Shown: positions 1-10,378 of the stretch, in pieces
Layout of the letters: every line of letters starts with the position of its first letter
Position numbering within the stretch: the first letter of the stretch is position 1
Assembly: GCA_965263355.1 (NCBI GenBank)
Contig: CBDHHL010000032.1
Span: 1,152,001 to 1,216,000, forward strand
From: Leptolyngbyaceae cyanobacterium
GTDB taxonomy: Bacteria; Cyanobacteriota; Cyanobacteriia; Phormidesmidales; Phormidesmidaceae
Reading direction: 5' to 3'
DNA: 64,000 nucleotides
The notes under the pieces: generated by a model
Databases searched by the model: none
Seen by the model: only the letters and a program-made list of their open reading frames with translations
What the model was told of the DNA's origin: nothing
Program-made: the position numbers and the translations under genes

Positions 1-656
1 TCGCAATCGCTCAAAAACGTCAGGAAAGCTTTATGGCAGAAGCTGCCCGTGCTCAGGCAGAGGCCTCGGTGCAAACTGCCACAGAAGTAGAAGAAGCCGA
101 AAGAGCTAGACAGCTTGCCGTTATTGAAGCTGAGCAAAGGGCCCAGGAAGTTAAGATTGCCGACCAAAACGTGGTAGAAATTGAAGTCTTTCGCCGTCGG
201 CGTCAGGCGCAGGTGGCTAAGGAAGCAGCCGAGCTGGAAGCGGAAGCAATTCGTACTCTAGCAGAGGCCAATAAAGATAAGGCCCTGGCAGAAGCCGATG
301 GTATTCGTTCCCAGATAGAAGCCAAGAATATTATTAGTGATGCCAATTTGACTGCTGATGTGTTGCAAACTATTTGGCCTGATTTAGCAGAGCGCTTACC
401 AGAGGTTCTACAAGCCCTGGCACCTCAACCAGGAGTGTTGGGAGATACTCGGGTATATTCATTTCCTGGTGCCAATGGGGGAAATGGGGCTCAGGACATT
501 AATAAGCTACTGCTCTCTACCAGTGGTTTATCGTTAATTAACTCTCTCTTAGAGGATGGCAAATTAGGGAACGTAGTTGGTAAAGTTAGCCAGTTGTTAC
601 AGAATAAGACAGCAGAGGTGACTGAAATGAATCCGGAACCTCCTGAAGCCAGTTGA
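1..656 (+). CDS. Flotillin/SPFH family protein, C-terminal part (runs in from window start)
   Basis: Ala/Glu-rich coiled-coil (AEAEAIRTLAEA...AEADG) typical of flotillin C-terminal repeats; ORF open to the window edge. Confidence 0.75.
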   Translation, partial: AIAQKRQESFMAEAARAQAEASVQTATEVEEAERARQLAVIEAEQRAQEVKIADQNVVEIEVFRRRRQAQVAKEAAELEAEAIRTLAEANKDKALAEADGIRSQIEAKNIISDANLTADVLQTIWPDLAERLPEVLQALAPQPGVLGDTRVYSFPGANGGNGAQDINKLLLSTSGLSLINSLLEDGKLGNVVGKVSQLLQNKTAEVTEMNPEPPEAS

Positions 657-675
657 CGACTAGTTAAGAAAATGT

Positions 676-713
676 CCTAAAAAGCCTTGGCTTACGATCC
701 AGGGCTTTTTAGG
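676..713 (+). terminator. Rho-independent terminator after flotillin gene
   Basis: CCTAAAAAGCCTTGG...CCAGGGCTTTTTAGG inverted repeat with A/T tracts on both sides. Confidence 0.7.
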
Positions 714-935
714 CTTGATTAGCCTAGGCGCTTACACTTATCCAATCAGTCTAAATTTTTCAGGGTCAATAGTTAGTTCTTAAAGTTTGCTTACCAGTTT
801 CTCAGCTGAGTAATGAGCGATAACTATTTCATTACAGCAACTTTATGACATGTACATCAGATGACTACGAAAATACTTCCCTGTAATTGAAGTTATTGCC
901 AGTGTGCTCAAGGCAATAAATTAGGAATCGTAGTT

Positions 936-1754
936 ATGGATAGACTGAAGATAACATCAAGGTTAATAGGGTGTGGGCTGATTGCAGGCTTGACAGTACT
1001 AAACGTACGTCCAGCCATAGCATTTCATGATGAGACTGATACCCTAGAGGCTTTGGTACCTGGTTCTAATGATTTTTCAGCTCATGCGGGTGATGTGATC
1101 AAAATTCGTGCCCAGAGTTCAGATGGTAATACGACGTGTTTGCCAGATGTGACTCCCACAGAAGAGTTGCTGCTGCTGGGTGAGGTAAAGCGAACTGCTA
1201 GCGATCGCACCTATGTATTTCAGGTTTATCAGGATGGTACCTATGAGTATCGGTTGCCAACGCCTTTAGATGAAACGGGGAGTTGTTCCATAACCGTGGG
1301 TGTGGCGACACGGTATGAAACATTGATGCTTGAGGCACGGGAGTTAGAGCGTAATAGCTATTGGGTTGCAGCTGAAGGGCAAGTTTCTCAAGCTCTGCAA
1401 ATGCAAAATGATGCACTAGCGCTTTACCAACAAGCAATTGAGTTGGAACCAGACTATCCTGATGCCTATAAGCGAGTGTTAGGGCTGTTGTTAGAAATTA
1501 ATGTGACTGATTTTGATCCAGAACAAGGTGATCTGGATGAGCTAGGAGAAGTTTTTCTGCGTTGGCCAGATTCAGTGCGGATATCTATGCTGACACATTT
1601 AGAGACACTGGCTCAGATCTATGAAAAATCTCCTGATTGGCGAGAAGATAAAGGGGATGATCCTTTATTCCTAAAGGGTTTTGCCGATTTTGTTCGGACT
1701 GGGAATGCACCTGATGTAGTAAGAGAGCTATTACTGGAAGGTCGAGGGGGTTAG
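936..1754 (+). CDS. Secreted hypothetical protein with beta-sandwich (PPC-like) N-domain and one TPR-like repeat
   Basis: Signal peptide ending PAIA; ALALYQQAIELEPDYPDAY TPR-like motif. Confidence 0.55.
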   Translation: MDRLKITSRLIGCGLIAGLTVLNVRPAIAFHDETDTLEALVPGSNDFSAHAGDVIKIRAQSSDGNTTCLPDVTPTEELLLLGEVKRTASDRTYVFQVYQDGTYEYRLPTPLDETGSCSITVGVATRYETLMLEARELERNSYWVAAEGQVSQALQMQNDALALYQQAIELEPDYPDAYKRVLGLLLEINVTDFDPEQGDLDELGEVFLRWPDSVRISMLTHLETLAQIYEKSPDWREDKGDDPLFLKGFADFVRTGNAPDVVRELLLEGRGG

Positions 1755-1843
1755 AGAGAGTATATGGGGTGTGATTGATTGCAACTAATTTTCAGCTGGT
1801 ACCAGCTACTCTTGCTGATACCAGGCAAACTAAAGATGCACGA

Positions 1844-2890
1844 CTAGGCCGTACGATGTTGATTTTGTAGTTGTCGACTCTTTGCTACGTGTTGGGCGGC
1901 TTCAACGGTAGAAATATTAGCACTGCTGGCATAATTAAAAATTTCTAGTAATGTACCATAGATACTGTGAATATGATTGTTTACCTTGGTTGTTTGGTAC
2001 CCAATTAATTCGTGATAGACATTAATAAGCCCACCCGCATTAATGACAAAATCAGGACAATAAAGAATCCCTTTTTGCTTGAGTGATACTGCATCTTGAG
2101 ATGCATTTGCTAGTTGGTTGTTTGCACACCCTGCAATAATTGGAGCCTTGATGTTTTGCAACGTAAATTGATTAATCACACCACCCAATGCACAGGGTGA
2201 AAATACATCGGCATCTAGCCCCATTATTTGATTAGGAGGAACAACGGTTGCTTGATAGCGTTGTTGTATCCAGGCTGTTTTCTGGGTATCTAAATCACTG
2301 ACAAACAACTGAGCACCTTGTTCTGATAGATCATGACAGAGGGCTTGGCCCACATTGCCTAAGCCTTGAATTGCTACTTTTAAGCCCCTCAGAGTGTGAG
2401 ATTGCCATCGAAATGCTACGGCTGCTTTAATGCCCAATAGCACACCTTGAGCTGTTGCGATCGCAGGTCCTCCTCCTTTTTCTTCAACTCCAACAACATG
2501 ATTAGTAATTTGATGCATGGTGCGAACATCTTGAGCATTCAGGTTAACGTCTTGCCCGGTAACAAATCGACCACCCAGGCTATCGACAAAACGAGCATAG
2601 GCTTTGAGTAAGGTGTCTGTTTTTGCATCAGGATGGGCAATAATTACCCCCTTTGCGCCTCCAACCGGAATCTTGGCACAAGCGGCCTTATAGGTCATGC
2701 CTCGGCTTAGGCGCAGAACATCTTTCAGAGCATCGGCTTCATCAGTGTAGGGCCAGAGACGCGTGGCCCCCATAGCCCACCCAGGTGTGGTGTCATGTAA
2801 GGCGATAATGGCCTTTAGCCCTGTAGCCCTATGGCGACAGTACAAAACCTGCTCGTGGTCTGAACTTTGAATTGTTTGAAAGAGTTCCAT
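1844..2890 (-). CDS. scyB: Glu/Leu/Phe/Val dehydrogenase family, ScyB-like tryptophan dehydrogenase
   Basis: HEQV, AMGATR, SRGMTYKAACA, TGQDVN, GGPA, RWQS, QGLGNVG, PCALGG, ANNQL, INAGG; these match my recollection of Nostoc punctiforme ScyB/TrpDH better than Bacillus LeuDH (GGTR, TAEDV). Confidence 0.8.
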   Translation of the reverse strand: MELFQTIQSSDHEQVLYCRHRATGLKAIIALHDTTPGWAMGATRLWPYTDEADALKDVLRLSRGMTYKAACAKIPVGGAKGVIIAHPDAKTDTLLKAYARFVDSLGGRFVTGQDVNLNAQDVRTMHQITNHVVGVEEKGGGPAIATAQGVLLGIKAAVAFRWQSHTLRGLKVAIQGLGNVGQALCHDLSEQGAQLFVSDLDTQKTAWIQQRYQATVVPPNQIMGLDADVFSPCALGGVINQFTLQNIKAPIIAGCANNQLANASQDAVSLKQKGILYCPDFVINAGGLINVYHELIGYQTTKVNNHIHSIYGTLLEIFNYASSANISTVEAAQHVAKSRQLQNQHRTA

Positions 2891-2936
2891 GGTTTTGAGT
2901 TCTTAATACAATAACAGTCGACAATTATTGGGATGG

Positions 2937-4178
2937 TTAAGCTTGAGCACAAATCAGTGAAACCAGGGGCACGCCGTTATAACCAAAATTGAGGTAATGA
3001 TCAGCATGCTTTTGCAGAGTAAGTATGGGCGAGATGATCAAGGCATCAGTGCAGGAGGGGTTTAAGGTATAACCGCTCTGCTTTAGTCGGTTAACCCAGG
3101 ATTGAGCAGTTTCGTGGCGTTCAATACGGGCAGTGTTATCAGCTTTTAGTACATCAACAACTTCACGACCAAAGAAGCAGGTTTTTAAGCCATTTTTGCT
3201 TTGCTGATCAATTGCCAGAACGTCGATCATTTTGAAGACACTACTATAATGACGCCAGCAATTTTGAAATCGAATACGAAAGTCTGGCTCCAGATGATCG
3301 GTGTTAGGCTCAGATAAGACAATGAGTGCTGGATTGAGCTGATGCAGACGCTGTAGCATTTCTGTGCGTACATCTTGCCCAGCTTTATCACAAATATGAT
3401 GTAATGCAAAAGAAGCGTTTATGATAGGGCGATCACATTGATCCTTCAATTGTTGCCAGTCTTGAGCATTGAGATCTTCAATGCCATTACGAAACGCGGT
3501 AAAGGTAACATCAAGCCCAAGCTCATAGGCAGCAGCTAAGATTGTTTGTTGGGCTAGAGATAGGCTTTGTAATGAGGGTTCTATCCCAATAATGTTGACC
3601 CGTTGAGGTTTTCTATGTAGACAGGCTAACTGGTGAAGCAACTCGACCATTTGCCTGCCAGTCCCAATGCCGATATCAATCAGTGTGATATCATCGCGTC
3701 CATTGCAGGCGTCAATGAGTAAGCCGGTTGCGAGTTCGCTGATTTGTGAGACTAAAGGTACCTGGTTGGCTAACAGATTAAACAGTTGAATTTGTGGGAT
3801 TTCATAGGGTTTTAGGTAAAGATTGGCTTTGTCGGCCACACTATTAGAGAGGCGCTCTGCCAGGGCACGGGCAAAAATTAAATGAGCGATCGCATTGGAA
3901 TCAGTGGCGATATTGAGACTATCTAACAACTGGTTTAACTGAGCTTGAGCTGCACACATGTTCCCTTGCGCAATCAAATCTACAACGTTGAAAAGTCTCG
4001 TTTGATTCAAACTTGTTTGATTACGGTTAATGGTGACTGTGGGTTCAACCGGATAATGCTCTAACATCATCCTCACTCTAATATCAGTAATCGGTGCTAA
4101 TGTCTTCAGATTAGGTGTCATCAGTGTGCCTCTTTCAATAGTTTGTGGACTCTCGATTAACAAAAGATTAGGCGACAA
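2937..4178 (-). CDS. Bacterial GRAS-domain protein (Rossmann methyltransferase fold); true start may be a downstream Met
   Basis: LRI-like FARALAERL; VHIID-like ITLIDIGIGTGRQM; INASFALHHI; PFYRE-like LNPALIVLSE...RFQNCWRHYSSVF; SAW-region FGREV...RIERHETAQSW...GY. Confidence 0.88.
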   Translation of the reverse strand: MSPNLLLIESPQTIERGTLMTPNLKTLAPITDIRVRMMLEHYPVEPTVTINRNQTSLNQTRLFNVVDLIAQGNMCAAQAQLNQLLDSLNIATDSNAIAHLIFARALAERLSNSVADKANLYLKPYEIPQIQLFNLLANQVPLVSQISELATGLLIDACNGRDDITLIDIGIGTGRQMVELLHQLACLHRKPQRVNIIGIEPSLQSLSLAQQTILAAAYELGLDVTFTAFRNGIEDLNAQDWQQLKDQCDRPIINASFALHHICDKAGQDVRTEMLQRLHQLNPALIVLSEPNTDHLEPDFRIRFQNCWRHYSSVFKMIDVLAIDQQSKNGLKTCFFGREVVDVLKADNTARIERHETAQSWVNRLKQSGYTLNPSCTDALIISPILTLQKHADHYLNFGYNGVPLVSLICAQA

Positions 4179-4214
4179 CTTTTTATCTCGAATGGTGAAA
4201 GTATCTGGTGTGAC

Positions 4215-5036
4215 TTAAAAAGCCTGGTTGTCTCGGATGTGTGAGTCATTAAATAGAAGAGCGGTGGTTGCTTGCTGCATAATATCAGTCGTATCAAATA
4301 AATCGCCGTTGTAAATTTGGAGTTGTTCAGGGCAGTCTTGCCAAATTTGTTGCCAGCCGTCGGGAAAGCGGGTGTGATGGATGAGTTCAGCGCCATTGGG
4401 CCCCCAGGCTGCTTCAAATATCAGGCTGTCATTGTCTGATTCTGCGTCGGTATCGCCTGGCGTTTGAATGCCGAGACGGTCATAGAGATTAATCAGGGTT
4501 CCGTCCTGGGTGTAGCTTATGCCATTGCCACAGTAATCGGCTCTGGCCATGCGGGTGCAGGCCTGATGATAATCTCTTAGGGAAGTACCCTGCTCTGTTT
4601 GCCAAGGGCGATAGCCCCACAGGGCACATTTGGCGATAACACCGCTGGTGCAGGCAAATGTGATTTCGTCGTTGGCAACATAGGCTCCGGTGTCGTCCCA
4701 TTCACCCTGGAGGGGAATGACTTTAGTGCTGCCATCGGGAGCGGGGTTACACAGGTTATGCCACTCAAAGGTATCGGGGTCTTGATACTGGATGGTGTAG
4801 AGGTAGGTTTCTTGCTGGGGATCGTTGTTATCCAACTCTGGGTCGGTAACTTTGATGGTGAGAGATGCACCGCTGGTCGTTTCCAGGGTGGTGGGCCTAT
4901 CTTGCAGTTGTCCTTCAACATAGAAGGGGACCTGTAATGTTAATCCATGGCCTGGTAATACTGCTTGAGAGAAGCTTAGGGCCGAGACCGTAAGTAAAAG
5001 TGGATTGATTAGAGAGGATAGAGTTACGAATCGCAT
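4215..5036 (-). CDS. Secreted ADYC-domain protein
   Basis: Hydrophobic N-terminal signal; FACTSGVIAKCALWGYRPW, HQACTRMARADYCGNG, FEAAWGPNGA signature motifs. Confidence 0.85.
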   Translation of the reverse strand: MRFVTLSSLINPLLLTVSALSFSQAVLPGHGLTLQVPFYVEGQLQDRPTTLETTSGASLTIKVTDPELDNNDPQQETYLYTIQYQDPDTFEWHNLCNPAPDGSTKVIPLQGEWDDTGAYVANDEITFACTSGVIAKCALWGYRPWQTEQGTSLRDYHQACTRMARADYCGNGISYTQDGTLINLYDRLGIQTPGDTDAESDNDSLIFEAAWGPNGAELIHHTRFPDGWQQIWQDCPEQLQIYNGDLFDTTDIMQQATTALLFNDSHIRDNQAF

Positions 5037-5081
5037 GGTTAATACCTGAAATATTAGACCAGTGAAATTTTCAATCAGGGA

Positions 5082-5128
5082 AACCAGAGTTCACAGTTTA
5101 GAGAAGAAATAGAAAGAGAACTCTGGTT
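5082..5128. promoter_or_regulatory. Intergenic stem-loop between repeat-protein and ADYC genes
   Basis: AACCAGAGTTC (5082-5092) and GAACTCTGGTT (5118-5128) form a perfect 11-bp inverted repeat with a 25-nt loop. Confidence 0.55.
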
Positions 5129-5157
5129 CCGTGTTGTTGGGCGATGGTTAAGCTCTC

Positions 5158-5832
5158 TTATTTGGCAGCATGACCGTCTAATGAAGTGCCCTGTGTACCA
5201 TTGCTTTTAGGGGCATGACCACTTAAGGAGATGCCGTTGTGCATAGCTTTAGGGGCATGACCATTCAAGGAAGTGCTTTGGACAGCATGCCCTTTGGCAG
5301 CATGACCATTAGGAGCCTGTCCGTCTGGGGAGGAGCTGTTTATGGCCAATCTCTTAGGAGCTTGTCCGTCTAAGGAAGAGCTGTTTATGGCCAATCTCTT
5401 AGGAGCTTGTCCGTCTAAGGAAGAGCTGTTCGGTAATGTAACTTTAGGAGCCTGTTCGTTTAGGGAAGAGCCGTTTATGGCCAACCCCTTAGGAGCTTGT
5501 TCGTCTAAGGAAGAGCTGTTTTGACTGATTGCTTTAGGAGCCTGTCCGTTTAGGGAAGAGCTGTTAAACGTTGCTGCTTTAGGTGCATGACCATTTAAAG
5601 AAGTACCATTATTGATTGCTTTAGGAGCCTGTCCGCGTAAGGAAGAGCTGTTAAGCACTACTCTGTCCTTATCACTTTTGGGAGATAGTGGCTGGAAAAA
5701 GGAGGCTTTTGCCGAATTTGCTTTAGGGGATGAGTTTTCTAAAGAGACTGTGTTGGCATTGGCGATTGTTGTCAAGCTTAGTACAGATGTAAATGCACAA
5801 GCGGCGGCCATAGAGAAAGAAATGCGCTTCAT
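5158..5832 (-). CDS. Secreted low-complexity protein with about 11 NSSSL(N/D)GQAPK repeats
   Basis: Sec-type signal ending IANA; ~15-aa repeat made of three pentapeptides; GGAG RBS upstream. Confidence 0.85.
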   Translation of the reverse strand: MKRISFSMAAACAFTSVLSLTTIANANTVSLENSSPKANSAKASFFQPLSPKSDKDRVVLNSSSLRGQAPKAINNGTSLNGHAPKAATFNSSSLNGQAPKAISQNSSSLDEQAPKGLAINGSSLNEQAPKVTLPNSSSLDGQAPKRLAINSSSLDGQAPKRLAINSSSPDGQAPNGHAAKGHAVQSTSLNGHAPKAMHNGISLSGHAPKSNGTQGTSLDGHAAK

Positions 5833-5896: not shown

Positions 5897-5938
5897 AGAG
5901 TATGGAAGTAGGCGTCCTGAAAACGTCCGCTGGCGTCC
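5897..5938 (-). promoter_or_regulatory. Putative SARP/BTAD-type activated promoter: three phased GGACG(CC/TT) heptamers plus TACTCT -10-like hexamer
   Basis: Minus-strand heptamers at 5938-5932, 5928-5922, 5917-5911 (10 and 11 bp period), then 8 nt, then TACTCT at 5902-5897. Confidence 0.5.
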
Positions 5939-6021
5939 TGGGAAAAAATAGCGTTGATCCTATGGCTTGAGATACGTTCGTATCCCTTGAAATCACTAGG
6001 CTACAGTGCCAATGTGACGCG

Positions 6022-6049
6022 AAAACGTCCTGAAGCCTCAGGACGTTTT
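6022..6049. promoter_or_regulatory. Perfect 12-bp inverted repeat (terminator of STAND gene and/or operator)
   Basis: AAAACGTCCTGA-AGCC-TCAGGACGTTTT; arms share the CGTCC core of the nearby direct repeats. Confidence 0.6.
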
Positions 6050-6127
6050 TCATATCTATGAAGAGCAAGTGTGCTAAAAAATTCCCCAAAAGGCATTCAC
6101 CCGGTGACCTGTTTGGGGCATAAAAAA

Positions 6128-9100
6128 TTATTCAACTGCCCCTAATGCTTTGAGTGCCGATTTTTGGGCCTCGGTTAATCCGGTGACATTGGCAATCTGC
6201 ATACCGGCGTAGGGTTTCAAAATATGAAAGGTAGAAAGGCGGGTGCCACTTTCCACATCCCAGAGGGTGATTTTCTCGTCCTCACCGCTGCAGGCCAACA
6301 GATGTCCGTTAGGATGAAGCGCCATAGACCATAGGGGAGCTTCGTGGGTAAGTACTTGCAGACATTCCCCTGTTTGCACATCCCAAATGCGGGCAGTGCC
6401 GTCATGGCTGGCACTGGCAATCAAGTGCCCATCTGGATGAATGGTCATGGCATATACCCAGCCGGTATGACCAGTGAGGGTACGGAAGCATTCGCTTGAT
6501 TGCAAATTCCATAGTTTAATGGTGCGATCGCCACTAGCACTAGCTAACCAAGTCTCAGGTAGATCATCCAAGGTAGCTCCAGACTGAGACGGACTAAACG
6601 CCACCGCATACATCCAATCGGTATGCTCCTGCAGCGTTTGGACGCATTCCCCAGATTCCACATCCCAAAGCTTGATCATATGATCAGCCCCAGCACTGGC
6701 CAGCTGTCGTCCATCGGGACTAAAGGCCACGGCCCAAACTTGGTTAGCATGTCCTGGCAGCTGCTGACAGCATTGCCCTGTGGTCAAATCCCAAATCCGC
6801 ACCACCGGTTGAATGCTGCCACTCGCTAATAGCTTTCCTTGGGGATGAAATGCTACACCATGGACCCACCCTGCCCGACCATCCAAAATTTGAATACTTC
6901 GGCCAGTGTCCCCATCCCACAGTCGAATGGTTTGATCAAATCCCCCTGTTGCTAGGATGGTTTGCAAGGTGCCGGACAGTTGCTGCTGAGCCACGGCCCA
7001 AACCCCACTGCTATGCCCTTCTAATGTCTTTAAACATTTGCCTGTCCGACTATCCCAAAGACGAATCAGGCTATCATCCCCGCCGCTAACCAGGGTGAAA
7101 TCATCATCACAAAAGGTGAGCGACCGAATGCAGTTGGTATATCCCTGCAGCGTTTGGACACATTGCTGTGTCTCCATATCCCACAACCGAATGGTTTGAT
7201 CAAAGCCACCGCTGGCTAACCTCTGCCCATCGGGACTAAAGCCCACTGCCCAGATTTGATCGGTGTGTCCTAGCAATGTGGCCAGACAGCTTTCGTTTTG
7301 GACATCCCACAAGCGCACCGTTTGATCATTACTGCCACTGGCGAGCATCTGTCCATCGGGGCTAAAGGCAATTGCCCAGATTTGATCGGTATGGGCCATC
7401 AACGTACTTAAGCATTGGCCCGTTTCAAGATCCCATAGACGAATCGTTTGGTCAGCTCCAGCGCTAGCAAGCATCTCTTGAGTGGGGTGTAGGGTAACGG
7501 ACCAAACCGGAGCCTGATGACCTTGAAAAACGGTAACACAGTCTCCTGAGTCCACATCCCACCAACGCACTACCTGAGCGGCATGCCCCGTGGCCAAATG
7601 AGTTCCCCTCGGATTAAAGGCTACAGAACGGACCAATCCCCCCTGGCTCTCCAGGGTGTGTAAACATTCGCCAGTTGTAGCATCCCACAGCTTGGCCGTT
7701 TGGTCTTCGCTGCCGCTAGCTACCCGCTGTCCATCGGGGCTAAAGGCCACGGACCACACCACGCTGGTGTGATCCTGCAGTATTTTCAAACATTGGCCTG
7801 AGGGTACATCCCAAAGCCGCACCGTATAGTCAACGCTGCCACTGACCAGGGTTTTGCCATCGGGGCTAAAGGCGATGGACCACACCCATCCCTTATGGCC
7901 CTGCAACGTCATCAGAGGTTGTCCATCAGTAACACGCCAAATCTGAACGTTGTAATTGTTGTCTCCCATCGCCAGGAGTGTCCCATCGGGACTAAAGGCA
8001 ATGGATAGAGCACTGCCAAAGGCCTGGGTAAACACCGACCTTACAAATTGTGCATGGGAAACATCGAGTTGGTGAAGCGTTGTTCCCTGAAGATAGGCCT
8101 GACGAATAGTGAGCTGGGAAAAATCTAAGTTGCTGGTGTCTAACTGGTTTTGACAGCAAAGATTGAGCAAATTCCCGCCGGCGTAGCTGGCACGATGAAC
8201 TTCGGTGTCGTGAATAGCCGTTAAAATCTGCTGAATTTGTTGCGTTAGGGCTATGGATGATGATGCTTGATTAACCTGCTCAAGGATGGGTTGCAAAATC
8301 AGGCGACATTGACTTTCACGAATAAAGTCTTGAACTGTTGCTTTGATGAGGGCATAGGCCGAGAGATGTGGCAGTTCAGCTGCAGCCTCCCTAAGTGTTT
8401 CGTCAAAATAGCTAATATCCAAAAGTTCATCGCTGACGGCTTCGATCAAACAGACCGTGACATATTCCATGACAACGGATTGTTGGGTGTAGGTATTACC
8501 CCGGCGTTCAATTAGCGATCGCCAACAGAGCGACTCTAGGGTTTCCAACAACAGTCGTTTAGAACACCGAGGATAAATATCAGCCCTCAGCTCTGGAATG
8601 CTGGTCCACTCCCGGTTAATCGCCAGCCAATACATCACCGTCTTTTCTAGAGGACTGAGCCGATCAAATTGTCGATCAAGTAGCTTTTTTGCGCCGTTAA
8701 ATAGAAGGGTATCCTCTTCTAAAAAAAGAGAGATGTCTCCGGAAAACACATCCCGTATCGAACCGCCGACAATTTGCAATGCCAAAGGGCTATATCCATA
8801 TCGTTTCCCCAGTTGTTCTTTTTGCACCTGGGTACCGACCAGTTGCTTAGCGTCTAGTACTGCCAGAGCGGCTTCGGGAGAACCAGCAACTTGGAGCGAT
8901 CGCACCGACTGGTTGATGCTTTCAAATGTCGAAATTTCAGCCGGTTTTTCACGACTTGTGATCATCAGGCAGCTCTGATGATTTGCCTGTCCCACCACTT
9001 GAATCAATTCACCGTAGTTTTCATAGCCGTCTCGAAACTGTCCGGCGCGTTCGCCTCCCTTGAGGATGGTTTCGCAATTATCCAAAACTACCAGACACCG

Positions 9101-10378
9101 GGATTGTCGTAGCCAGTGCATCAAGCGGTTTGTGGAACAGGCAGTGTCCTGTTGATTTGACAAAAAAGGAATTAAATCATTGAGTAACGTTTCTAGGGGC
9201 GGCGCATTGCGAAGCGATCGCCAAATCAGGTGGTCAAATTCCCCTTGTAGTTCCTGAGCTATTTTGGCAACTAGTGCCGTTTTACCAATGCCCCCCATTC
9301 CCAGCACGGCGGTCAGTCGACAGGAGTTTTCAACAATCCATCGCCGCAACTGAGCCAGTTCATCCGTGCGACCGTAGAAGAACTCAATGTCAGGGGCTTC
9401 GCCCCAGTCAATAGACGTCTTTGCCTGGGGCAAGGCTCGATCATCTTTGATATTGAGCCCTTGATCTGAGGAGGACTCGTTGCTATCTGTAGCTACATTG
9501 GATTCTGAGAACAAGGTAGCTGTGGTAGCCTCGGAAGTAGGCGTTTCCCAGCCTGGTACCACGATATCGGTATCCGAAAACTCTCTTGTCGGTAAACTAT
9601 CTGAAATTTGGCTGGTAACTACCTGGGGGGTATCGTCTAGTGTGAGTAACTCTTCATACAAGCTGCAGGTACTAGGACTGGGTGGCATGCCCAATTCCTC
9701 TTGCAGTAAAGTCATGCATTGATGATAGATACGCATGGCAGTGGCGCGATCACCCTTTTGGGCATGCAGCTGCATGAGGTGACAATAGGCCAGCTCTGAG
9801 AGTGGATCTAACTCACATAATTGCTGCGCATATTCAATGGCTGAACTCAGCTGGCCTTGTTCTGTTAGCTGGGTAATCAAGGTATCCAGTGCTTTGATTG
9901 CTTGCTGTCGCATGCGATCGCGATAGGGCTCAATCCAGTCGTCATAACACTCTGGCAATAAATCTCCCTGGTAGAGTTTAGCGGCTTGCTTCAAGTCTTT
10001 GAGGGAACTGGTTTGAAATACTTGTTCGTTGATTACTTGTTCGTTTATCAGTGCTTCAAAACGGTCTATATCTAACGCACACCCCTTACCCATGACCCAC
10101 TGAACCGTTTTAGGCTTAACCTGCAGCCAGCGTTCGCTCTCAGGGATATGTTGCTTCAGTTCATGCAATCGTCGTCTTAAGTTGGCTTTAGCGTTAGTAT
10201 CCGTTGCGTCAGGCCAAAGAGTTGCCGCTATTTGCTGTCGAGATAGTGGTTCATCTCGATGCAGTAAAATAAATGCCAATAATGCCTGTAAGCGTTCAGA
10301 CTTTACCCCACTGATGGGCACAGTATCAGCACTGAGGGAAAACTTGCCCAATAGTTGAATCTGCAGTTGGGTAGACAC
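6128..10378 (-). CDS. STAND/NLR-type transcriptional regulator: wHTH + BTAD + NB-ARC + WD40 repeats
   Basis: N-terminal LQIQLLGKF...LWPD...NLRRRLHEL and BTAD (LYQGDLLPECYDDWI, DPLSE); DWGEAP; Walker A GMGGIGKT; Walker B LVVLDN; about 14 GH...WD repeats. Confidence 0.93.
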   Translation of the reverse strand: MSTQLQIQLLGKFSLSADTVPISGVKSERLQALLAFILLHRDEPLSRQQIAATLWPDATDTNAKANLRRRLHELKQHIPESERWLQVKPKTVQWVMGKGCALDIDRFEALINEQVINEQVFQTSSLKDLKQAAKLYQGDLLPECYDDWIEPYRDRMRQQAIKALDTLITQLTEQGQLSSAIEYAQQLCELDPLSELAYCHLMQLHAQKGDRATAMRIYHQCMTLLQEELGMPPSPSTCSLYEELLTLDDTPQVVTSQISDSLPTREFSDTDIVVPGWETPTSEATTATLFSESNVATDSNESSSDQGLNIKDDRALPQAKTSIDWGEAPDIEFFYGRTDELAQLRRWIVENSCRLTAVLGMGGIGKTALVAKIAQELQGEFDHLIWRSLRNAPPLETLLNDLIPFLSNQQDTACSTNRLMHWLRQSRCLVVLDNCETILKGGERAGQFRDGYENYGELIQVVGQANHQSCLMITSREKPAEISTFESINQSVRSLQVAGSPEAALAVLDAKQLVGTQVQKEQLGKRYGYSPLALQIVGGSIRDVFSGDISLFLEEDTLLFNGAKKLLDRQFDRLSPLEKTVMYWLAINREWTSIPELRADIYPRCSKRLLLETLESLCWRSLIERRGNTYTQQSVVMEYVTVCLIEAVSDELLDISYFDETLREAAAELPHLSAYALIKATVQDFIRESQCRLILQPILEQVNQASSSIALTQQIQQILTAIHDTEVHRASYAGGNLLNLCCQNQLDTSNLDFSQLTIRQAYLQGTTLHQLDVSHAQFVRSVFTQAFGSALSIAFSPDGTLLAMGDNNYNVQIWRVTDGQPLMTLQGHKGWVWSIAFSPDGKTLVSGSVDYTVRLWDVPSGQCLKILQDHTSVVWSVAFSPDGQRVASGSEDQTAKLWDATTGECLHTLESQGGLVRSVAFNPRGTHLATGHAAQVVRWWDVDSGDCVTVFQGHQAPVWSVTLHPTQEMLASAGADQTIRLWDLETGQCLSTLMAHTDQIWAIAFSPDGQMLASGSNDQTVRLWDVQNESCLATLLGHTDQIWAVGFSPDGQRLASGGFDQTIRLWDMETQQCVQTLQGYTNCIRSLTFCDDDFTLVSGGDDSLIRLWDSRTGKCLKTLEGHSSGVWAVAQQQLSGTLQTILATGGFDQTIRLWDGDTGRSIQILDGRAGWVHGVAFHPQGKLLASGSIQPVVRIWDLTTGQCCQQLPGHANQVWAVAFSPDGRQLASAGADHMIKLWDVESGECVQTLQEHTDWMYAVAFSPSQSGATLDDLPETWLASASGDRTIKLWNLQSSECFRTLTGHTGWVYAMTIHPDGHLIASASHDGTARIWDVQTGECLQVLTHEAPLWSMALHPNGHLLACSGEDEKITLWDVESGTRLSTFHILKPYAGMQIANVTGLTEAQKSALKALGAVE

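Follow-up and report, generated by a model that had tools for sequence, protein, structure and literature searches.

What does a dehydrogenase of the type used in scytonemin biosynthesis do when its gene stands directly behind that of a bacterial GRAS protein, and does the GRAS protein act on its product? This arrangement is found in the window, the whole 64-kb stretch of cyanobacterial DNA that was analysed. A preliminary description had read the gene as a ScyB-like tryptophan dehydrogenase outside a scytonemin cluster and had paired it with the GRAS protein as a methyltransferase. The features involved are collected in Table 1.

Table 1. Features of the locus in the window and of the precursor genes in its relatives (L001 and L004, loci of relatives; P numbers, proteins)
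Feature	Position	Strand	Remarks
ScyB-clade amino-acid dehydrogenase	1844..2890	-	348 aa, ATG to TAG; P0001; predicted NAD+-dependent tryptophan dehydrogenase
GRAS-dehydrogenase spacer	2891..2936	-	46 nt, GRAS stop to dehydrogenase start; L001 spacer alike in length and sequence
Bacterial GRAS-domain protein	2937..4121	-	394 aa; P0002; PF03514 E 1.8e-43; predicted methyltransferase, SAM motifs intact
ADYC-domain protein	4215..5036	-	Co-oriented neighbour, outside the conserved pair
N-x-x-S-L-x-G repeat protein	5158..5832	-	Start resembles a signal peptide; associated with ADYC rather than with the pair
SARP-like/NB-ARC/WD40 regulator	6128..10378	-	Upstream of the co-oriented gene run
Multi-module double-glycine precursors, CxPWxCG or CxxxxCG cores and NHNE tail	L001 11087-12580; L004 2087-2974, 4816-5616, 15189-17855		Also P0006, P0007, P0013

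The dehydrogenase and the ScyB clade

The minus-strand reading frame of the dehydrogenase is intact, and the plus frame across the same positions is riddled with stops. All five motifs that had been quoted as ScyB/TrpDH-like are present in the translation: AMGATR (39-44), KAACA (68-72), TGQDVN (111-116), GGPA (140-143) and RWQS (161-164). The protein harbors both ELFV dehydrogenase domains (PF02812 and PF00208), the active-site lysines K68 and K80, the catalytic D114, the GxGxxG motif (G176-G178-G181) and the acidic D199 (NAD), and by these domains and active-site residues it belongs to the Glu/Leu/Phe/Val dehydrogenase superfamily. Among solved structures the tryptophan dehydrogenase 5b37 is its top match, at 431.5 bits and with an ungapped alignment over residues 2-339, followed by LeuDH at 312 and PheDH at 189 bits. 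The gene is under purifying selection (dN/dS 0.11-0.13 against two relatives), and the genes downstream of it have the opposite orientation. A contig from a public run is identical to the window across 26-5362 and may be the source sample itself.

In the trees, ScyB was represented by proteins from scy clusters, and nine plasmid-borne, non-cyanobacterial family members with function by annotation served as outgroup. The dehydrogenase falls in the cyanobacterial ScyB clade with an SH-aLRT of 100 (the 105-row tree is a quick tree), on a long-stemmed branch of its own together with L001, L004, P0122-P0125 and P0244. A constraint joining this branch to Bacillota LeuDH-like proteins was rejected (p-AU 4e-58); the clustering with LeuDH/ValDH, which the preliminary description had named as telling against its reading, was thereby tested and rejected, and the enzyme stands apart from LeuDH, ValDH and PheDH. 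A position as sister to scy-cluster ScyB, as opposed to nested, was not rejected (p-AU 0.405, in a test run without the named ScyB P0133 and four non-scy copies), so that nesting within ScyB is not claimed, the sister placement being equally allowed. Identity is 56-61% to the 73 ScyB rows, which include a few duplicates, and 37-47% to the nine-member outgroup. Among 50%-identity representatives only two exceed 400 bits to the dehydrogenase, the next one reaching 307.

Twenty-six columns were taken as diagnostic, being at least 95% conserved among the 73 scy-cluster ScyB rows and sharing another residue in three LeuDH-like rows; there, the window enzyme agrees with ScyB at 22 columns and with LeuDH at 2, and matches neither at the other 2. 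It retains the ScyB-specific M40, A69, I74, G112, L288, I289 and Y292, as well as A42, Q113 and V133, which are taken here to form the tryptophan pocket of 5b37. The residues that set the specificity of LeuDH and PheDH are presumably A113/V291, against G/L. No confirmation of A113/V291 in this role is found in excerpts of PMC9728165. The branch also has changes of its own (G79A, A81G, G99A and I125M), and five of its seven members carry Y67D, the window enzyme keeping Y67; since this position is otherwise invariant, the activity of the branch may have shifted. The tyrosine concerned, that of MTYK at column 67, is invariant in the 73 ScyB rows and in the outgroup, and it is Asp in most of the dehydrogenase branch; the sequences listed with Asp are P0241, P0243, P0124, P0244, P0123 and P0125.

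The NCBIfam equivalog model for ScyB, NF035922, scores the dehydrogenase at 526.7 bits, below its cut-off of 600, and clade members at 489-530. This miss is not decisive, because 3 of 12 ScyB-type proteins that were rescanned, all three from scy clusters and two given as 339-aa pieces, miss likewise (555-587 bits); the window enzyme scores lower than all 12. It thus resembles ScyB/NpTrpDH (NpR1275; 5b37; NF035922) in clade, length and catalytic and pocket columns, and differs from it in its own long branch, its score below the cut-off, its GRAS partner and the lack of adjacent ScyA and ScyC. ScyB deaminates tryptophan to indole-3-pyruvate, according to excerpts of PMC7997468 and PMC3252866. 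The dehydrogenase is a diverged branch of the ScyB/TrpDH clade, and its substrate, judged from sequence, is very probably tryptophan.

The context agrees with the tree and the pocket columns in bearing out a ScyB-like tryptophan dehydrogenase outside a scytonemin cluster. As had been claimed, no scyA, scyC or scyD is adjacent: tblastn with the ScyA, ScyC, ScyD/E/F-, Ebo- and Trp-type neighbours of scy loci (the ScyD/E/F and Ebo labels being assigned from gene order in those loci) found no match in the 64-kb window, an absence that applies to these 64 kb, just 1.8 kb of which lie downstream of the dehydrogenase. Both ScyA and ScyC are present in 70 of the best 80 of 460 genome loci, and L001 and L004 have neither. 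ScyC was not found in the relatives G001, G002 and G003, and was found in both control genomes. Taken alone, the presence of ScyB away from a scy cluster is no more than mildly unusual. Papers have already described ScyB-like genes in settings other than scytonemin production, according to excerpts of PMC9796282 (on non-producers) and of PMC6939163, and the latter states that scyB always adjoins scyA.

Other ScyB-type genes stand in further contexts. At L044 (779-11075) one is followed by LuxE, LuxC, an isopropylmalate-synthase-like gene and dehydratase-like subunits, and chain extension of indolepyruvate is possible there. In Hormoscilla (L015, 7325-12941) such a gene, whose reading frame stops early at 287 aa, is found with an FAD monooxygenase, a glycosyltransferase and an ABC transporter. 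Three Nostoc loci (L008, L014 and L040) combine it with a ThDP enzyme, a ketosynthase-III-like gene and methyltransferases, without ScyC, and these gene sets may represent another indole pathway.

The GRAS protein and the conserved pair

The GRAS gene likely starts at ATG 4121, which is preferred because of an AGAGG-N-ATG stretch common to the window and L001; the TTG at 4178, which would lengthen the protein, is the less likely start. Bacterial GRAS proteins were assigned to the Rossmann methyltransferase superfamily by Zhang, Iyer and Aravind (2012), as cited in excerpts of PMC5834537 and PMC4279901, and the model of the window protein contains a SAM-binding Rossmann core. Its D149-x-G-x-G-x-G motif and residues E181, E215, N235, H241 and H242 are conserved in 110-120 of 120 bacterial homologues; plant DELLA proteins, unlike the bacterial ones, have lost the glycine loop. 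As in known bacterial GRAS proteins (PF03514), the domain is stand-alone with intact SAM motifs, but the protein differs from the others in belonging to a cyanobacterial branch with a tryptophan dehydrogenase partner and with fusions to peptide precursors.

The structure model (pLDDT 81.5) resembles plant GRAS proteins with Z scores of 34-37, as against 18 or less for class I methyltransferases. A wide structure search placed BelI, CmoA and a Methanosarcina methyltransferase (Z ~18) ahead of SgvM (16.7), and Foldseek gave SgvM as the first non-GRAS match, with MrsA and MppJ also listed and the methyltransferase E-values near ties; O-, N- and C-methyltransferases are all found among these neighbours. 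Membership of the MppJ family was considered and rejected at the level of sequence similarity, since the sole NCBIfam match is a weak one to TIGR04543, 2-ketoarginine methyltransferase (E 2e-4, 20.6 bits against a cut-off of 425), and the GRAS profile found no MppJ/SgvM chain in the PDB up to E 10. When a profile of the MppJ family (120 sequences, seeded with a homologue from G001) was aligned to the GRAS profile with hhalign, at a weak probability of 83%, the invariant first metal His of that family fell in register with H242 and the second (SgvM H296) against V322/D323. The GRAS protein therefore shares with MppJ, SgvM and MrsA the class I Rossmann core and a His in register after strand 4, but it has a helical cap instead of their dimerisation domain, and the second metal His is out of register. 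The conserved H241, H291, H336, E320 and D323 could serve as metal ligands, and it is possible that the protein works like a keto-acid methyltransferase. SgvM is a zinc-dependent alpha-keto acid C-methyltransferase whose metal is bound by H244 and H296, as described in an excerpt of PMC10502145.

The GRAS gene lies directly upstream of the dehydrogenase, on the same strand, in the window and in L001 and L004, as the preliminary description had placed it, and the pairing that it proposed is borne out as an adjacency conserved at three loci of one lineage. L001 belongs to Leptothoe spongobia, and its dehydrogenase is 85% identical to that of the window, with 75% for L004; they are the two closest full-length matches among the best 80 of 460 loci, and the only two of those 80 with GRAS. 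No terminator-like site was called in the spacer, and the promoter and terminator scans scored no higher than shuffled sequence. Purifying selection acts on both genes (dN/dS 0.08-0.19), and the adjacency and the short spacer are kept while the flanks all change and synonymous sites are near saturation (dS 0.7-2). As each of the three loci has flanks of its own, the conserved unit is a two-gene cassette; as the three pairs come from one related lineage, the pairing counts as one evolutionary event, not three. It is probable that the dehydrogenase and the GRAS protein are functionally coupled.

Among 172 genomes of the order of L001, GRAS exceeds the cut-off in 2 (a third match lies below it) and the dehydrogenase family occurs in 6; in both GRAS genomes the dehydrogenase is single-copy and next to GRAS. 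In G003, which has a dehydrogenase at 71% identity cut by the contig end, no GRAS was found. A Leptolyngbya MAG has the two genes on separate short contigs, and the Logan dehydrogenase and the Logan GRAS each come from 4,402-nt contigs, which fits one contig without showing it. The dehydrogenase is absent at 11 metagenome GRAS loci (32-45% identity; four of them shorter than 3.5 kb), at G031 and at a Skermanella plasmid locus, the one examined of two Skermanella records with GRAS among 72,556 plasmids. Consequently, a substrate proposed for the pair need not apply to the whole GRAS family. The neighbours of 13 distant bacterial GRAS loci are TerB domains, kinases, response regulators or unrelated genes, and at L085-L088 and L096 TerB domains are fused to the GRAS protein or come next after it.

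A search of the literature, with subscription titles mostly outside it, found no paper on a GRAS-ScyB-type pairing and none linking a bacterial GRAS protein to a substrate, and excerpts of PMC8225149 make no mention of this locus.

A candidate route to methylated tryptophan and its alternatives

Because the substrate of the dehydrogenase can be predicted, candidate substrates for the GRAS protein can be named: tryptophan, indole-3-pyruvate and a CxPWxC peptide. The proposed model is that the dehydrogenase would convert L-tryptophan into indole-3-pyruvate and that the GRAS protein would methylate the latter with SAM, the beta-carbon being the likeliest single site. The same dehydrogenase would then re-aminate the methylated keto acid to beta-methyltryptophan, which is conceivable because the dehydrogenase family is reversible, and the route would operate without PLP and with zero net redox change. 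In the relatives the pair is part of an exported-peptide locus; in the window it is left by itself behind another regulator and another module of secreted proteins. The parts of this model differ in strength. If the pair is coupled, the balance leans towards the keto acid, or a compound closely derived from it, as the group that receives the methyl. Deamination of tryptophan followed by SAM-dependent methylation by GRAS, in the manner of StnR/StnQ1, is the likeliest of the readings, though it is held with some reserve. The complete scheme, a PLP-free, redox-neutral two-gene route in which GRAS is a metal-assisted C-methyltransferase of indole-3-pyruvate and the dehydrogenase was recruited from the sunscreen pathway, is put forward tentatively and is, as a whole, unlikely. 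The window reveals no later step that would consume a methylated product.

The design has precedents in the beta-methyltryptophan cassettes of streptonigrin (StnR/StnQ1, with StnK3) and maremycin (MarG/MarI, with MarH), in which a tryptophan-indolepyruvate enzyme also stands beside a SAM methyltransferase. According to excerpts of PMC4742848, StnQ1 methylates indolepyruvate, not tryptophan, and StnR and StnQ1 in one pot yield beta-methyltryptophan. Those cassettes rely on a PLP aminotransferase together with an established keto-acid C-methyltransferase, whereas the window has an NAD dehydrogenase and a GRAS-fold protein, with neither epimerase nor assembly line near the pair. The pair is a real, conserved variant of this known deaminase-plus-methyltransferase design. 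Separately, Leptothoe spongobia (G001) carries at L118 1456-3534 a true MppJ-like keto-acid C-methyltransferase (MppJ E 1e-63), with an aminotransferase-like gene next and an EgtD-like methyltransferase gene before it, so that a cyanobacterium has the classical cassette for beta-methyl amino acids.

The main alternative is that GRAS is a methyltransferase tailoring peptides. In L001 and L004 a precursor gene and an exporter adjoin the pair. The L001 precursor, whose gene starts 39 nt past the dehydrogenase and has an NHLP exporter upstream, is a 497-aa protein of nine repeated modules. Each module comprises a leader of the double-glycine type, a core, for which C-x-P-W-x-C-G is the usual sequence, and an NHNE tail. 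Genes of this kind are numerous in L004, which also has heme-oxygenase-like iron enzymes, and in G002 the precursors neighbour heme-oxygenase-like/cupin enzymes, a TPR protein and an MvdD-like ATP-grasp gene. As a DNA pattern, WxCGxNHNE is confined, among the 172 genomes, to the two with the pair, where its 13 matches all lie on the contig of the pair (reversed control, 0), and in three close GRAS proteins the domain is fused to modules (one in P0006, three in P0007, four in P0013), all eight with CxPWxC. No description of this peptide family was found in the literature searched; a DUF5836 profile search gave 0 of 301 genomes, G002 included, and is uninformative. Exact co-occurrence and repeated fusion with tryptophan-containing cores point to a peptide substrate, for which the dehydrogenase would support the supply of tryptophan or indolepyruvate, the window pair having lost the peptide or lying far from it. 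In line with such a loss, 10 of the first 19 residues of the window GRAS protein are identical to those of a fused form (E 0.005), which suggests that modules were deleted here. Yet no NHNE or CxxWxC module occurs in any frame of the window, and no precursor or exporter beside the pair, even though both genes are intact and under purifying selection; a dehydrogenase of free amino acids has no evident job on an internal tryptophan; and it is the dehydrogenase, not the precursor, that stays with GRAS in all three loci, which favours a small molecule over a peptide. Peptide tailoring is considered unlikely, and a serious competitor all the same.

Indole-3-pyruvate is also the precursor of auxin, and a diffusible indole signal could be formed if it decayed or were decarboxylated to an auxin-type acid, with GRAS methylating the carboxyl O or the indole N. 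The near-tie of O-, N- and C-methyltransferases among the structural neighbours would allow such chemistry, and regulators and secreted proteins flank the pair. However, the window has no ThDP decarboxylase of the ScyA type, neither a decarboxylase nor a flavin monooxygenase lies beside the pair in L001 or L004, and the name GRAS is all that points to plant hormones. Nothing specific was found in support of the auxin-like signal that had been suggested earlier, and a signal of this kind is rather improbable.

It could also be argued that GRAS is a non-catalytic receptor which, like plant GRAS, binds the indole keto acid delivered by the dehydrogenase, as its fold is far nearer to plant GRAS than to enzymes and distant bacterial GRAS genes lie near TerB, kinase and response-regulator genes. 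The SAM motifs and polar pocket residues are, though, almost invariant across the 120 bacterial homologues, and no DNA-binding or signalling domain is attached to the window protein, which leaves the receptor a small chance. Just as small is the chance that the two genes moved together without a functional link, the dehydrogenase being a stand-alone tryptophan deaminase for nitrogen scavenging that was recruited outside scy clusters: ScyB-clade genes without ScyC do occur elsewhere, ScyA or ScyC is absent from 10 of the best 80 loci (from some merely owing to short contigs), and such genes are published from non-producers (excerpts of PMC9796282), but here adjacency and spacer have outlasted the changed flanks. 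An aliphatic (Leu/Val) or Phe enzyme that merely resembles ScyB is highly improbable, since the NF035922 score and the name 'leucine dehydrogenase' given to close homologues by two sources are outweighed by the tree test, the diagnostic columns, the higher identity to ScyB and the scy-cluster ScyB proteins that also fall under the cut-off.

If the route to methylated tryptophan is true, it would be a new one, and a bacterial GRAS protein would have a measured reaction, with the auxin precursor of plants as its substrate; in the relatives the route would supply, or run beside, a so far undescribed family of exported CxPWxC peptides. A positive result with the two proteins would give a function to enzyme relatives of DELLA and SCARECROW.

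Neighbouring genes

Upstream of the pair, the ADYC and repeat-protein genes are separate in the window and adjacent in three other genomes (L127, L128 and L130). ADYC is not beside the pair in L001 or L004 and lies on another contig in G002. A five-gene unit of regulator, repeat protein, ADYC, GRAS and dehydrogenase was considered and rejected, as ADYC occurs in 8 of 172 genomes, only one of them with GRAS, and there on another contig. A literature search on ADYC returned unrelated papers only. Within ~20 kb of the pair, both relatives have a run of menG-menF-menD-menB-menE-GST-menA-DUF2515 (L001 13851-20968; L098 4236-13621), with labels mostly read from the sequences and those of menG and DUF2515 from scans.

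The SARP-like regulator is a possible activator of the co-oriented run. Related NB-ARC/WD40 genes flank the pair in L004, and genes of this kind are common among cyanobacteria. Inspection by eye of the stretch upstream of the repeat-protein gene (5912-6050, minus strand) reveals GGACG three times, at distances of 10-11 nt, and a palindrome of the same core, which resemble the binding site expected for a SARP-type protein and could be a putative target of it.
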